From UHGV virus genome UHGV-0077748: 10,441 bases of DNA, one strand, 5' to 3'. The translations under genes were made by a program, and so were the position numbers. Positions 1,321-4,835 of the stretch are shown piece after piece; positions within the stretch are counted from its first letter, which is position 1, and each line of letters begins with the position of its first letter. The DNA comes from a virus. Under the pieces are notes generated by a model, which saw only the letters and a list, made by a program, of their open reading frames with translations, did not search any database and was not told the DNA's origin.

Positions 1321-1971
1321 ATGAATACACAACTGATGGGTGAGCGTATTCGCGCTCGCAGAAAAGAACTCAAGATTAGGCAGGCTGCCCTTGGCAAGAT
1401 GGTTGGCGTGTCTAATGTTGCTATTTCCCAATGGGAGCGATCTGAAACTGAGCCCAATGGCGAAAACCTATTGGCCTTAGCCAAGGCTTTGCAGTGCTCC
1501 CCTGATTACCTGTTGAAAGGAGAGGATAGTCTTTCAAACATTGCCTATCACAGCAGGCATGATCCAAGAGGTTCGTATCCTCTAATTAGTTGGGTAAGCG
1601 CAGGATGTTGGATGGAAGCTGTAGAGCCATATCATAGGCGTGCAATAGATAACTGGTACGACACAACGGTAGATTGTTCTGAAGACTCTTTTTGGCTCGA
1701 CGTTAAAGGCGATTCAATGACTGCCCCGGCAGGACTGAGTATTCCTGAGGGGATGATTATTCTCGTCGACCCAGAAGTCGAACCACGTAATGGAAAGCTG
1801 GTAGTCGCCAAACTTGAAGGAGAAAACGAGGCGACATTCAAAAAGTTAGTTATTGATGCCGGTAGAAAATTCCTGAAACCACTCAATCCACAATACCCAA
1901 TGATTGAAATCAATGGGAACTGTAAAATCATTGGCGTTGTCGTTGATGCCAAGCTAGCAAACCTTCCTTAA
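1321..1971 (+). CDS. c2: Phage repressor, P22 C2 / lambda CI family (N-terminal HTH, C-terminal S24 LexA-like autopeptidase domain)
   Basis: 216 aa; MNTQLMGERIRARRKELKIRQAALGKMVGVSNVAISQWERSETEPNGENLLALAKALQCSPDYLL.. matches P22 C2 over its length as recalled; HTH VGVSNVAISQWE; Ala-Gly cleavage site (..WVSAGCW..) and GDSM serine motif with downstream Lys. Confidence 0.95.
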   Translation: MNTQLMGERIRARRKELKIRQAALGKMVGVSNVAISQWERSETEPNGENLLALAKALQCSPDYLLKGEDSLSNIAYHSRHDPRGSYPLISWVSAGCWMEAVEPYHRRAIDNWYDTTVDCSEDSFWLDVKGDSMTAPAGLSIPEGMIILVDPEVEPRNGKLVVAKLEGENEATFKKLVIDAGRKFLKPLNPQYPMIEINGNCKIIGVVVDAKLANLP

Positions 1972-1993
1972 GGGGCTTTCGCCCCTTTTTTTA
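1971..1993 (+). terminator. Intrinsic terminator immediately after c2
   Basis: GC stem aggggc / gcccct with loop TTTC followed by a 7-T run, directly after the c2 stop codon. Confidence 0.7.
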
Positions 1994-2035
1994 TTTCCCG
2001 TTAAAAATCAAAGACAAACTAAATTCACGCCCATA

Positions 2036-2090
2036 AAATTAAGTTTTCTTCAAAAATGCACTTGACCAATAAATTAAGAGGTCTTAAATT
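2036..2090 (+). promoter_or_regulatory. pL promoter with OL operator(s)
   Basis: -35 TTGACC (2062-2067), 17-bp spacer, -10 TAAATT (2085-2090). 18-bp operator aattaagaggtcttaaat (2072-2089), palindromic with ATTTAAGA half-sites as in OR, overlaps the spacer and -10; weaker operator-like sequence at 2036-2057. Confidence 0.6.
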
Positions 2091-2136
2091 TAAGCCGTCA
2101 GCAGGACGCTGGAAGCCAAACGGAACAGATTGGCAG

Positions 2137-2176
2137 GCTCTTTAACATCGACGGACTCTCAACCTAACCGTTGAGA
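2137..2176 (+). promoter_or_regulatory. nutL: boxA (2137-2147 GCTCTTTAACA) and boxB hairpin (2157-2176 tctcaac-CTAACC-gttgaga)
   Basis: Seen directly in the pL leader upstream of N: boxA-like element, 9-nt spacer, then a perfect 7-bp stem with a 6-nt loop. Confidence 0.7.
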
Positions 2177-2286
2177 CCAGAACTTGAGTGGTTTTGGGGA
2201 TGGCGCGAATTGCAGCTGCAAGACAGCGATCGAGAAGATAAGCACCTCGACGCGTCATGCGCCAAAGCCACTTAAAGGAGACCATC

Positions 2287-2592
2287 ATGGTAACCATTGT
2301 CTGGAAAGAATCCAAAGGTACGGCAAAAAGCCGCTACAAAGCTCGCAGAGCAGAACTTATTGCCGAGCGACGCAGTAATGAAGCACTGGCGCGAAAAATT
2401 GCGCTAAAGCTCTCTGGTTGCGTCAGAGCAGACAAAGCAGCATCACTAGGAAGCCTTTGCTGCAAGAAGAAAGAAGAAGTCGTTCGAAAAAATAGAAGTA
2501 TTTATTACAAAGATTCAAACCCATTAGGAAACAAAATACATGCAGTCCAAAAAATAAAATTGTACAGTAAACTACCGTACGGTGCTTATTGA
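2287..2592 (+). CDS. N: N-family transcription antiterminator, phage 21-type, with N-terminal arginine-rich motif
   Basis: AAGGAG RBS 7 nt upstream of ATG 2287. Translation MVTIVWKESKGTAKSRYKARRAELIAERRSNEALARKIALKLSGCVRADKAASLGSL.. matches phage 21 N as recalled. First gene after pL/nutL. The track ORF begins at 2257 but the SD supports 2287. Confidence 0.85.
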   Translation: MVTIVWKESKGTAKSRYKARRAELIAERRSNEALARKIALKLSGCVRADKAASLGSLCCKKKEEVVRKNRSIYYKDSNPLGNKIHAVQKIKLYSKLPYGAY

Positions 2593-2594
2593 GT

Positions 2595-2933
2595 ATGCTT
2601 ATGGTGAAAAAGACTATTTATGTTAATCCTGACCGCGGACAAAACAGAAAAGTATCTGATAGAGGTCTTACATCTCGAGACAGGAGGAGAATAGCGAGAT
2701 GGGAAAAAAGGATAGCATATGCATTAAAAAACGGTGTAACACCTGGATTTAATGCTATAGATGACGGTCCTGAATATAAGATTAATGAAGAACCAATGGA
2801 CAAAGTTGACAAAGCATTAGCAACACCATTTCCTCGCGATGTCGAAAAAATTGAAGATGAAAAATATGAGGATGTAATGCACAGAGTTGTTAATCACGCT
2901 CACCAACGAAATCCAAATAAAAAATGGTCATAG
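2595..2933 (+). CDS. Hypothetical protein (about 112 aa), AT-rich moron gene A; Arg-rich segment SRDRRRIARWEKR
   Basis: Open frame ending at TAG 2931-2933 inside a terminator hairpin. Start uncertain (ATG 2595 or 2601, weak SD; possibly coupled to the N stop). Visibly lower GC than flanking phage core genes. No family recognised. Confidence 0.6.
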   Translation: MLMVKKTIYVNPDRGQNRKVSDRGLTSRDRRRIARWEKRIAYALKNGVTPGFNAIDDGPEYKINEEPMDKVDKALATPFPRDVEKIEDEKYEDVMHRVVNHAHQRNPNKKWS

Positions 2934-2954
2934 CCCACTTCGGTGGGTTTTTTA
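2932..2954 (+). terminator. Intrinsic terminator (UUCG-tetraloop hairpin plus T-run)
   Basis: cccac-TTCG-gtggg followed by TTTTTTATT. Confidence 0.7.
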
Positions 2955-3069
2955 TTGTCTGAACAAACCTAATTTACTACCGCAAGCCACGCAGTGAAAT
3001 GGGTGTGACTTGCTCAGGCCGCCAGAAAATGAAATTAGGCAGCAAACCACTTATTTGAGAGGAATTAAT

Positions 3070-3693
3070 ATGTCATCAATCCGCTTAACTACGAGAATGA
3101 AAGAGGAAATCGCTCGTAACGCTTTAATTAAGTCTGGGGTTTTCACTGAACTTGAAGAAGTAACAAAGTTAAAGAACCAGCTTGCACTTGACGCCAGAGT
3201 TATTGCGTTTGGCGGTAAAAAGAAAACTGAGGAAGTGGATCAGTTATCATCCAAGTTGGTAGCTATAAGTGAAGAACTTGGAAAGATGGGATGTTCATTT
3301 TACTCATACGATGTTAGTTCTACTTCAATTTATCTGACTGTATCTGGCAGAAGGGTTGGATGGCATTCATATGGGAAAGACGGCAACGGCGAAGATATAT
3401 TGCTCCCTACTCCGACCAAAGATAAATGCATGTTTAGCGCAGAACACGAAATAACAAAAAGGTTTGATGAAATCTGCGCATTGCAACAAAAACTTGAAGC
3501 CAAGAAAAAGGATATCGAATCAAATGTATGGGCTGCTTTGAACTCAGTCACAACAGTTAAGCGACTTATTGAAGTTTGGCCTGAAAGCAAAGAATTGCTA
3601 CCAAAAGAAGCAGATAAAGCAAGTACAGCACTTCCTGCTTTACGGGTAGAAGATTTGAATAAGATGATTGGACTTCCTTCCGAGGCCGCATAG
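3070..3693 (+). CDS. Hypothetical protein (207 aa), AT-rich moron gene B
   Basis: ATG 3070 preceded by GAGAGG; translation MSSIRLTTRMKEEIARNALIKSGVFTELEEV..GRRVGWHSYGKDGNGEDILLPTPTKDKCMF..; no family recognised. The track start at 3010 looks like upstream read-through of the frame. Confidence 0.7.
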   Translation: MSSIRLTTRMKEEIARNALIKSGVFTELEEVTKLKNQLALDARVIAFGGKKKTEEVDQLSSKLVAISEELGKMGCSFYSYDVSSTSIYLTVSGRRVGWHSYGKDGNGEDILLPTPTKDKCMFSAEHEITKRFDEICALQQKLEAKKKDIESNVWAALNSVTTVKRLIEVWPESKELLPKEADKASTALPALRVEDLNKMIGLPSEAA

Positions 3694-3709
3694 TCGGCCT
3701 TTATTTTTG
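3682..3709 (+). terminator. Terminator-like hairpin overlapping the gene B stop codon
   Basis: Stem gaggccg / cggcctt with the stop codon TAG in the loop, followed by TTTATTTTT. Confidence 0.55.
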
Positions 3710-3735
3710 GCATAAACAACAGAATAAACACTGCA

Positions 3736-3767
3736 CTGTGTATTCATTCCAACGAGTGAATACACGG
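3736..3767. repeat. Near-perfect inverted repeat (12-bp arms, 4-nt spacer CAAC): gtgtattcattc-caac-gagtgaatacac
   Basis: Seen directly; 11 of 12 arm positions are Watson-Crick complementary and the twelfth is a G-U pair as RNA. Lies in the spacer between two terminators, abutting GGAG at 3766-3769. Confidence 0.6.
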
Positions 3768-3827
3768 AGCAATGTCGCTCGTAACTAAACAGGAGCCGAC
3801 TTGTTCTGATTATTGGAAATCTTCTTT

Positions 3828-3866: not shown

Positions 3867-4835
3867 ATGAGTGAAGTAACAGATTTAGTTGTTATTGAAA
3901 AAGCAAATGCAATGACTGTATTTCAGTCTGCCGACCAGATTGAAGAAATCCTTCAAAGGGTTGAACGTGAAGTTATGTCCTTTGTGCCTGATATCACAAC
4001 GGCAAAGGGCAGAAAGGAGATCGCTTCTCTGGCGTATAAAGTTGCGCAGACGAAAACATATCTCGATGGTCTTGGCAAAGACCTTGTTGCTGAACTGAAG
4101 GAAATTCCAAAGCTAATTGATGCCAACCGCAAGACAGTGCGTGATCGCCTTGATGAGCTGAAAGCCAAGGCGCGCCAGCCTCTTACTGATTATGAGGAGG
4201 AACAGGCACGGATTAAAGCCGAAGAAGAAGCTAAGGCAGCAGCTGAAGCTCTCGCAAAGCAAATTGAGTCTGACCATGAAATAGCGATTTTGATGGATCG
4301 CGAATTTGACCGCCAAAGAGAAGAGGCAAGACTCAAAGCGGAGCAGGAAAAGCGAGAGCATGAAGAACGCTTAAAAAGAGAAGCTGAAGAGAAAGCCAGA
4401 GCAGAAGCCGAAGCAAAGGCAAAAGCCGAAATTGAAGCAGCAGCAAGGCGAGAAGCAGAAGCTAAGGCCGCAGCGGAACGTGCAGAGCGTGAACGCATTG
4501 AAGCCGAGCAACGAGCACAGCGCGAAGCAAAAGAGGCAGCAGAACGAGCTGAAAGAGAAAAGCAGGCGGCAATTGAAGCAGAACGCCGAAAAGCACAGGA
4601 GGAGGCTGAACGAATCCGGCGCGAGGCTGAAGCAAAAGAGCAAGCCAGAATAGCAGAAGAAAAAAGAATCAAGGAAGAAGAAGAGTGTAGAGCAAAGGAT
4701 AAAGCTCACCGGAAAGAAGTAAATAACAAAATACTTGCTGACCTTATCAAGGTTGGCGCATCAGAAGATGTTGCTAAAAATATCATAACAGCCATCGTAA
4801 AAGGCGAAGTATTCGCAACAAAAATAACCTACTAA
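3867..4835 (+). CDS. Hypothetical phage early protein (322 aa): about 115-aa N-terminal domain plus about 170-aa E/A/K/R-rich charged helical (single alpha-helix / coiled-coil-like) repeat region
   Basis: ATG 3867 with GGAGG SD. Translation MSEVTDLVVIEKANAMTVFQSADQIEEILQRV.. then ..EEAKAAAEALAKQ..REAEEKARAEAEAKAKAEIEAAARREAEAKAAAERAERERIEAEQRAQREAKEAAERAEREKQAAIEAERRKAQEEAERIRREAEAKEQARIAEEKRIKEEEE... The track start at 3813 is TTG; the internal ATG is preferred. Confidence 0.75.
   Translation: MSEVTDLVVIEKANAMTVFQSADQIEEILQRVEREVMSFVPDITTAKGRKEIASLAYKVAQTKTYLDGLGKDLVAELKEIPKLIDANRKTVRDRLDELKAKARQPLTDYEEEQARIKAEEEAKAAAEALAKQIESDHEIAILMDREFDRQREEARLKAEQEKREHEERLKREAEEKARAEAEAKAKAEIEAAARREAEAKAAAERAERERIEAEQRAQREAKEAAERAEREKQAAIEAERRKAQEEAERIRREAEAKEQARIAEEKRIKEEEECRAKDKAHRKEVNNKILADLIKVGASEDVAKNIITAIVKGEVFATKITY

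Follow-up and report, generated by a model that had tools for sequence, protein, structure and literature searches.

The open reading frame at positions 2595–2933 on the plus strand of the window, that is, the whole stretch of 10,441 nucleotides analysed here from the virus genome UHGV-0077748, is very probably nun, encoding a prophage factor for transcription arrest and superinfection exclusion of the type originally reported as Nun in coliphage HK022. The product, 112 amino acid (AA) residues long as commonly annotated and terminated by a TAG codon (2931–2933), matched the PHROG 5632 profile 'Nun-like transcription termination factor' from position 1 to position 112 of its 112 residues (E value 8.5e-71). 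A tblastn search against phage genomes gave 100% AA identity with Nun of mEp235 and mEpX1 and 98.2% identity across 112 AA with Nun of HK022, and a PDB search with the same product returned the full-length Nun chain N of the cryo-EM elongation complex 6ALG (E value 8.2e-71). The sole differences from HK022 Nun, in the 109-residue numbering, are R11 (S11 in HK022) and E63 (D63 in HK022), both located outside the arginine-rich motif (ARM, residues 19–44) and the arrest tail (residues 87–109). The gene is already known: positions 1900–3800 of the window share 98.7% identity with the DNA of phage mEp235, and this nearest phage record annotates the counterpart gene as 'transcription termination factor Nun'. 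The dN/dS ratio of nun is 0.10–0.20 among four natural alleles, which, together with published work on the purified protein and its structure, establishes that the frame is coding; the nun ORF is real and under purifying selection.

Other databases were silent on this product. Zero Pfam families were matched at E ≤ 1, NCBIfam and PADLOC scans gave no match, and only PHROGs holds a model for it; no Rfam family reached its gathering score anywhere in the window. We also considered whether the product could itself be an N antiterminator. This was rejected, as the ARM is internal (residues 19–44), the C-terminus is the arrest tail and the true N is the upstream ORF at 2287–2592; the N-family models (Pfam N36, N_peptide and Phage_N_antitermin, and those of NCBIfam) did not match the nun product.

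The window corresponds to the immunity and early left part of a lambdoid phage genome. Minus-strand genes resembling cII and cro come first. A repressor gene of the P22 C2 type (1321–1971) was assigned from the Pfam domains Peptidase_S24 and HTH_3 and from the P22 C2-like annotation in mEp235, and a terminator scan placed a terminator after it (1970–1987). A candidate pL on the plus strand (2062–2090; TTGACC, 17 nt, TAAATT) came from a consensus scan only, with a position matching that of lambdoid pL. The nutL site (2137–2176, plus strand) consists of boxA GCTCTTTAA (2137–2145), annotated as such in mEp235, and a phage-21-type boxB UCUCAACCUAACCGUUGAGA (2157–2176), which is a hairpin with a CUAACC loop. 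On the minus strand, nutR (1008–1048) was located from sequence and folding and from the boxA annotation of mEp235, with boxA TGCTCTTTAA at 1048–1039 and boxB UCACCUCUAACCGGGUGA at 1025–1008, the latter carrying the same CUAACC loop as its nutL counterpart. The leader of N is strongly structured. The N antiterminator gene itself (2287–2592, plus strand; PHROG 271 'anti-termination protein N-like', E value 4.6e-31; annotated as N in mEp235) encodes a phage-21-type ARM, GTAKSRYKARRAELIAERR. nun is thus placed between the repressor, pL and N on one side and the remaining pL operon on the other, the latter including an Nmad5 gene, a Rad52-like recombinase, an SSB and others.

The junction between N and nun is as tight as the sequence-only reading had described it: the N stop codon TGA (2590–2592) ends 2 nt before the ATG at 2595 and 8 nt before the ATG at 2601. 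That reading had also seen no good Shine-Dalgarno (SD) sequence, and indeed the best anti-SD pairing ahead of any of the three starts amounts to only about -2 to -3 kcal/mol. The nun frame opens with TTG at 2589 and contains in-frame ATG codons at 2595 and 2601 and a GTG codon at 2604. Since divergent Nun homologues begin with M[AVK]KKT, aligned to ATG 2601, and the PDB chain begins with VKKT, either ATG 2601 (110 AA residues, 109 without Met) or GTG 2604 (109 AA residues, the numbering of the literature) is more likely to be the true start than ATG 2595.

The charge pattern of the protein has three parts rather than the two proposed from sequence inspection. Residues 1–47 are basic (pI 11.5, net charge +10) and residues 48–93 are acidic (pI 4.15, net charge -8), in keeping with the description of an acidic C-terminal half; the last 17 residues, however, are strongly basic again (pI 12, net charge +4), and it is this basic C-terminal tail that is the functionally decisive part of Nun. 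The basic stretch SRDRRRIARWEKR, noted earlier, is present at 2673–2711. It belongs to the ARM, the boxB RNA-binding helix of Nun (residues 19–44, DRGLTSRDRRRIARWEKRIAYALKNG; 2658–2735, plus strand), in which 26 of the 26 residues are identical to chain B, 'NUN-PROTEIN', of the boxB complex 1HJI. The suggestion of a small nucleic-acid-binding regulator was therefore correct; that of a 'mimic-type' regulator found no support. The region recognising lambda boxB (residues ~20–44, including Y39) lies within this identical stretch, and the core DRRR..RW.K is invariant among HK022-type family members. The role of the ARM in Nun has been described previously (PMC5386594).

The second module, the RNA-polymerase arrest tail (residues 87–109, KYEDVMHRVVNHAHQRNPNKKWS; 2862–2930, plus strand), is identical to that of HK022 Nun. 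All of the residues H93, R94, N97, H98, H100, R102, K106, K107, W108 and S109, which contact polymerase, RNA or DNA in the structural paper (PMC5386594), are present in Nun of the window. Residues 87–109 are the only part of Nun visible inside the elongation complex by cryo-EM and hold all known arrest determinants (PMC5386594). The motif VNHAHQR.P.KKW within the tail is invariant in 84 family clusters.

Conserved promoter and terminator sequences bracket the gene. The nun promoter, PNun (2540–2568, plus strand), consists of a -35 hexamer ATGCAG (2540–2545), a spacer of 17 nt and a -10 hexamer TACAGT (2563–2568), and was assigned from sequence identity and from the annotation of phage O276 (a lambda/HK022 hybrid, MH547045), in which the -35 and -10 elements of a 'nun gene promoter' are placed 27–55 nt upstream of nun. 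The hexamers and ~115 nt around them are identical or nearly so in the window, HK022, HK75, mEpX1, PDP110P1 and mEp235, from which we infer that PNun is active as a promoter in the window phage as well. A generic promoter scan of the window did not detect PNun, because its -35 hexamer (ATGCAG) is too poor. In the window PNun agrees with the O276 promoter at every base and lies within the last 18 codons of N. This location inside a translated N gene, unlike that in HK022, could make its activity differ during lytic growth.

Downstream, an intrinsic terminator (2932–2955, plus strand; stem AGCCCAC/GTGGGTT, UUCG loop and T run) was found by a terminator scan, with a folding energy of -10.3 kcal/mol. 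The stem differs from that of HK022 by a compensatory change (CCCAC/GTGGG here, CCCGC/GCGGG there). Folding of the nun leader revealed no significant RNA structure able to regulate translation (z -0.49). As judged from these elements, promoter, gene and terminator would together form a unit, so that nun could be expressed in a repressed prophage with N neither transcribed nor translated. Translational coupling to N, which the short junction had suggested, is possible on transcripts from pL, but it is neither necessary nor conserved, because HK022 and HK75 carry or express nun without an upstream N gene, the stop codon of the N remnant in HK022 is mutated from TGA to TGG, a 1-nt deletion in PA28 shifts the frame and extends N 32 nt into nun, and the window has a sequence identical to the dedicated nun promoter annotated in O276. 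The N–nun junction, when checked in related phages, is accordingly not conserved. Nun is present at ~100 nM in lysogens and is toxic if overexpressed, its arrest then being nonspecific (PMC5386594). The weak SD sequence and weak promoter fit this documented need for a low Nun level.

The boundaries of the cassette could be drawn by comparison with phages that lack one or the other of its parts. Homology of HK022 to the window runs from 2475, inside N, to 2950. From about 2475 onwards, N has a 'type B' C-terminal tail (…YKDSNPLGNKIHAVQKIKLYSKLPYGAY), which is common to the N remnant of HK022 and carries PNun. HK022, which has been described as a phage without N (PMC9378689), has retained, ahead of nun, ~39 codons from the 3' end of an N gene (…EVVRKNRSIYCKDSNPLGNKIHAVQKIKLYSKLPYGAY). 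The right boundary is an orphaned second N C-terminus (TNLIYYRKPRSEMGVTCSGRQKMKLGSKPLI / IYYRKPRSEMGVTCSGRQKMKLGSKPLI, each ending at a stop codon; 2963–3058, plus strand), recognised by DNA homology to SH2026Stx1, a phage that has a related N but no nun. Positions 2962–3741 of the window are 98% identical to SH2026Stx1, where the corresponding DNA is the 3' end of an intact N with no nun behind it; the SD sequence and start of the Nmad5 gene directly follow the N-tail remnant, as they do in SH2026Stx1. Among the phages examined, every one that carries both N and nun has such an orphaned N tail behind nun; the put-type phages lack it. On this sequence comparison, the cassette appears to be composed of the 'type B' N tail with PNun, nun and the terminator, followed by the orphaned 'type A' N tail. 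The two tails gave no alignment in BLASTP within the window, and align at the DNA level. To label them a 'direct repeat' would be an overstatement; they are recognisable as alternative, diverged versions of one N segment only through the DNA alignment and the 98% match between the remnant and an intact N elsewhere.

The mechanism of exclusion has been established for the HK022 protein and is transferred here to Nun of the window. ARM-mediated targeting of boxB, competition with N, the dependence on Nus factors and the roles of the tail residues have all been described (PMC5386594), and exclusion by HK022, the one phage for which it is documented, depends on Nus factors, affects only lambda and lambda imm434 (which have their NUT sites in common) and is the sole role known for Nun (PMC4124055). 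In a lysogen of the window phage, nun would be transcribed constitutively at a low level from the weak PNun in the 3' end of N and translated from a weak ribosome-binding site, with transcription stopping at the terminator (2932–2955); after induction, nun would also be present on the N-antiterminated pL transcript. When lambda or a phage of the lambda-imm434 type superinfects, the ARM helix (residues 19–44) would bind the boxB hairpin in the lambda-type nut RNA of the invader's nascent early transcripts, in competition with lambda N. Together with NusA, NusB, NusE and NusG, the tail (residues 87–109) would insert into the RNA polymerase active-site cleft and block translocation, so that the early genes of the invader would remain unexpressed.

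The transcripts of the resident phage would not be targets of Nun, given its phage-21-type N with cognate CUAACC-loop boxB sites. The lambda-type boxB GCCCTGAARAAGGGC is absent from the window, as found in a search of its whole length allowing up to 3 mismatches. Because there is no lambda-type boxB, both nut sites carry a CUAACC-loop boxB and N has a 21-type ARM, the resident phage should not be susceptible to its own Nun. That phage-21-type boxB is not bound by Nun is what we infer from the range of phages reported to be excluded. A literature search found no exclusion data for lysogens of mEp235-type phages. A lambda-type N occurs together with an HK022-type Nun in L005. L005 has a putL-like sequence and no lambda-type boxB within the 6.3 kb examined, and for this reason is not contrary to self-avoidance.

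Three other explanations of the gene were weighed against exclusion. The one that survives best, and which we still regard as very unlikely, holds that in N-bearing phages Nun mainly tunes early transcription of its own phage, damping N antitermination or the pL operon while being co-translated with N by coupling, and that exclusion is a side effect. The distance of 2–8 nt from the N stop to the nun start and the weak SD sequence would suit such a role, unrelated phages (L011, L013 and L014) repeat the pattern of a Nun-family gene starting no more than 8 nt after N, and a high concentration of Nun arrests any elongation complex (PMC5386594). Nevertheless, nun mutants of HK022 are normal in lytic growth and lysogenisation (PMC4124055), the window offers no lambda-type boxB for the ARM to bind, the junction is lost through the change of TGA to TGG in HK022 and the frameshift in PA28, and a separate promoter and terminator enclose nun. 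It is still harder to regard nun as a decaying passenger gene that has no present function and is a relic of mosaic recombination in the N region. Recombination scars, in the form of the duplicated N tails, do lie on both sides of it and the terminator is degraded in HK75 and PA28, but about 219 E. coli genomes carry the gene intact and at full length, its dN/dS of 0.10–0.20 speaks against decay, and every functional residue is identical to that of the active HK022 protein. The restriction-alleviation or anti-restriction protein of the Ral type, first suggested by a position downstream of N as that of lambda ral, small size and charged composition, can be practically dismissed: no Pfam family and hence no Ral was matched at E ≤ 1, in line with the impression that the sequence is not Ral-like, and the confident PHROG match and the 98.2–100% identity to named Nun proteins tie the product to a characterised, unrelated family whose different function is biochemically and structurally established.

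An exclusion factor of the HK022 Nun type therefore remains the preferred identity, and the HK022 protein (NUN_BPHK0; 6ALG and 1HJI) is the closest characterised system. Its ARM and tail are identical to those of the window, the upstream ~115 nt including PNun are shared, and a terminator is located at the same position. HK022 differs in having no N gene, with putL and the last ~39 N codons (stop TGG) upstream of nun and IS903 downstream, whereas in the window nun is preceded by an intact N of the phage-21 type and followed by an orphaned N tail. Phage mEp235 (JQ182731) agrees with the window in repressor, nutL, N, nun, N-tail remnant and Nmad5 gene, and mEpX1 (JQ182727) encodes a Nun protein that is 100% identical; the window is an allele of the mEp235 phage type from which nothing of substance differs. 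The best chromosomal match is E. coli PI24 (99.9%).

Nun has been called a homologue of N (PMC4124055), and the window carries N and Nun side by side. Like Nun, the N proteins of the lambda family are small and basic, are encoded just downstream of pL, bind boxB of nascent RNA through an ARM and act with Nus factors and RNA polymerase. Unlike Nun, they bring about antitermination rather than arrest, and they differ from it in the C-terminal segment (VNHAHQR.P.KKWS in Nun).

In complete E. coli genomes, nun is present in 221 of 5,426 and is intact and full-length in about 219 of them; at least 80% of the pL-nutL-N-nun-remnant stretch is held by 212 of the 221, which have the N-nun layout. The putL-N'-nun layout of HK022 was seen in a single one of the 5,426, demonstrating that the model phage is atypical and that nun almost always stands behind an intact N in E. 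coli. In RefSeq the gene is labelled 'hypothetical protein' or 'transcriptional regulator'. With no Pfam, NCBIfam or PADLOC model, nun stands under such labels in about 220 complete E. coli genomes and is missed by defence-system finders. As to the single gene, the present finding itself adds little, as the correct call for the ORF is a textbook gene.

The organisation of the cassette is reminiscent of the 'morons' of lambdoid phages, reportedly described by Juhala, Hendrix and colleagues in 2000 as units of promoter, gene and terminator inserted between conserved phage genes. As far as its sequence allows, nun resembles them in that it is bracketed by its own promoter and terminator, would be expressed from the repressed prophage and would benefit the lysogen. 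Two features set it apart. Its promoter is not intergenic but is contained in the coding sequence at one alternative 3' end of N, the neighbouring essential gene, and a diverged N tail lies on each side of the unit. The placement of PNun inside the last codons of N constrains the evolution of both genes and reveals the cassette organisation.

The Nun of the window is one member of a wider family. An exhaustive profile search yielded only 16 representative clusters, and a word-indexed search using a profile built from diverse members yielded 97 clusters, 84 of them full length. Family members are spread over the Enterobacterales, in Escherichia, Citrobacter, Klebsiella, Enterobacter, Yersinia, Hafnia, Providencia, Proteus and Photorhabdus. 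Common to all 84 full-length clusters is the tail ..D[AVI]M.[RK]VVNHAHQR.P.KKW(S). The N-termini attached to this tail fall into at least eight arginine-rich classes, three of which are homologous to N proteins: P0064 resembles the phage-21-type N of the window (52% over 46 AA, E value 2e-15), P0044, annotated as 'antitermination protein N', resembles lambda-type N (56% over 52 AA, E value 8e-12), and P0051 resembles P22-type N (44% over 36 AA, E value 2e-5). P0039 likewise has an ARM of the 21 type and P0028 one of the P22 type, and P0067 represents an 'NSRNRRRE' class that occurs in E. coli.

Family members often occur in tandem pairs, usually directly after the resident phage's own, different N. 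In Hafnia phage Pocitis76, its own N is followed by a member with a lambda ARM and then by a member with a P22-like ARM; in L005 and L006, an HK022-type member overlaps a member with a 21-like ARM. In L013 and L014, a family member begins 8 nt past the N stop codon and is followed by a terminator, after which L014 has a short duplicated N end. Taken together, these sequences suggest that the system is modular: the effector (the tail) is kept, while the address (the ARM) may be swapped. In laboratory nun-N hybrids (Henthorn and Friedman 1996), RNA binding by the N-terminal part and the effector function of the C-terminal part proved separable (PMC5386594). The natural family members resemble the same kind of swap; the laboratory hybrids were engineered, whereas their apparent natural counterparts are encoded in prophages of Hafnia, Yersinia, Klebsiella, Providencia, Escherichia and others.

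Based on these observations, we lean slightly towards the view that nun is one member of a modular, diversifying 'anti-N' exclusion family, in which each paralogue targets one nut specificity. P0064, with an N-terminus like the N of the window, would be an example of a paralogue aimed at one such specificity. New specificities would arise through recombination between adjacent N and nun genes, and the cassettes would travel between phages with the duplicated N 3' ends serving as homology arms. Literature searches on mEp235 together with Nun, on Nun homologues and on Nun-like proteins found neither the N-nun arrangement nor natural ARM variants, which is no proof of novelty.

On this view, N followed by nun, the common layout, would probably also be the ancestral one, and HK022 would be a derivative whose 5' part of N was lost to putL. 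If this reading of the family is true, the textbook account, in which HK022 exchanged N for Nun, would have to be turned round. The ARM-swapped arrest factors would then constitute a naturally programmable, RNA-guided block to transcription, addressed by hairpins, and the family would provide a clear case of an arms race over antitermination specificities.

An orphaned second N C-terminus (…IYYRKPRSEMGVTCSGRQKMKLGSKPLI, followed by the stop codon) is located on the + strand at window 2963-3058, after the nun terminator and ahead of the Nmad5 gene. It shares 98% identity with the 3' end of N in phage SH2026Stx1, which has an intact N gene and lacks nun. This orphaned N tail marks the right-hand limit of the nun cassette. 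The Nmad5 family gene that follows the cassette (window 3070-3693, + strand) encodes a strong member of the 'nucleotide modification associated domain 5' family (PF18757, E 9e-72), which also matches PHROG 1965 (unknown function); PADLOC returned no match for this product.

A further N remnant was observed directly 5' of nun in HK022 (AF069308), at 2381-2500, which corresponds to window 2475-2594. Although this phage is usually described as lacking N (PMC9378689), the final ~39 N codons are still present directly upstream of its nun, with the original stop codon changed from TGA to TGG. The annotated nun promoter falls within this remnant. The junction between N and nun also varies in phage PA28 (KP682381, 1470-1532), in whose Stx-phage allele a 1-nt deletion close to the N terminus-coding 3' end shifts the frame and results in a 32-nt overlap of N and nun. 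The stem of the nun terminator is broken in both PA28 and HK75 (1836-1870 in each locus).

Folding of the N leader of the window gave a long, very stable hairpin (window 2184-2275, + strand; -47.2 kcal/mol, z -4.98), with none of 200 shuffled sequences equally stable, which stops just 5' of the N Shine-Dalgarno sequence AAGGAG (2275-2280). This hairpin resembles the structure in the lambda N leader that is processed by RNase III. In Hafnia phage Pocitis76 (OL512804, locus L011), a tRNA-Gly is annotated between nutL and N (1638-1717), and its flanking arms, 'GGGGTG…CACCACCAAAG', are common to the N leaders of the comparison loci L005 (about 3920-4100) and L014 (about 3490-3600), within whose arms no obvious tRNA was detected.

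Divergent nun homologues (60-65% identity) were found directly 3' of sequence resembling the HK022 putL in L005 (2860-2930 and 4117-4440) and in L004 from Citrobacter braakii (about 470-560 and 923-1060). Some 500 nt farther downstream, L005 also possesses an N gene of the lambda type, but no lambda-type boxB was found in the 6.3 kb covered. In L004, nun is followed by only a 45-AA N-tail remnant. Tandem Nun paralogues are also present. In Pocitis76 (1740-2680), N is followed by ORF43, in which a lambda-type Arg-rich RNA-binding motif (ARM) is joined to the Nun tail, and then by ORF42, which combines a P22-like ARM with the same kind of tail; in L005 (3001-3617), the HK022-type nun overlaps, at ATGGTGA, a paralogue of 97 AA whose ARM is phage-21-like.

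Among 5,426 complete E. coli genomes, nun was found in 221, most commonly labelled as 'hypothetical protein', and it is without a model in Pfam, NCBIfam and PADLOC. The N-nun arrangement of the window occurs in 212 genomes of this set and the HK022-type putL-N'-nun arrangement in only one. In the wider family, covering proteins P0021-P0103 and the loci L005, L006, L011, L013 and L014, 84 full-length clusters carry the Nun arrest tail VNHAHQR.P.KKW[S], and 'antitermination protein N' is the annotation given to some of the members. At least eight different kinds of Arg-rich N-termini precede this tail, several of which are homologous to the N ARMs of the lambda, 21 and P22 types.
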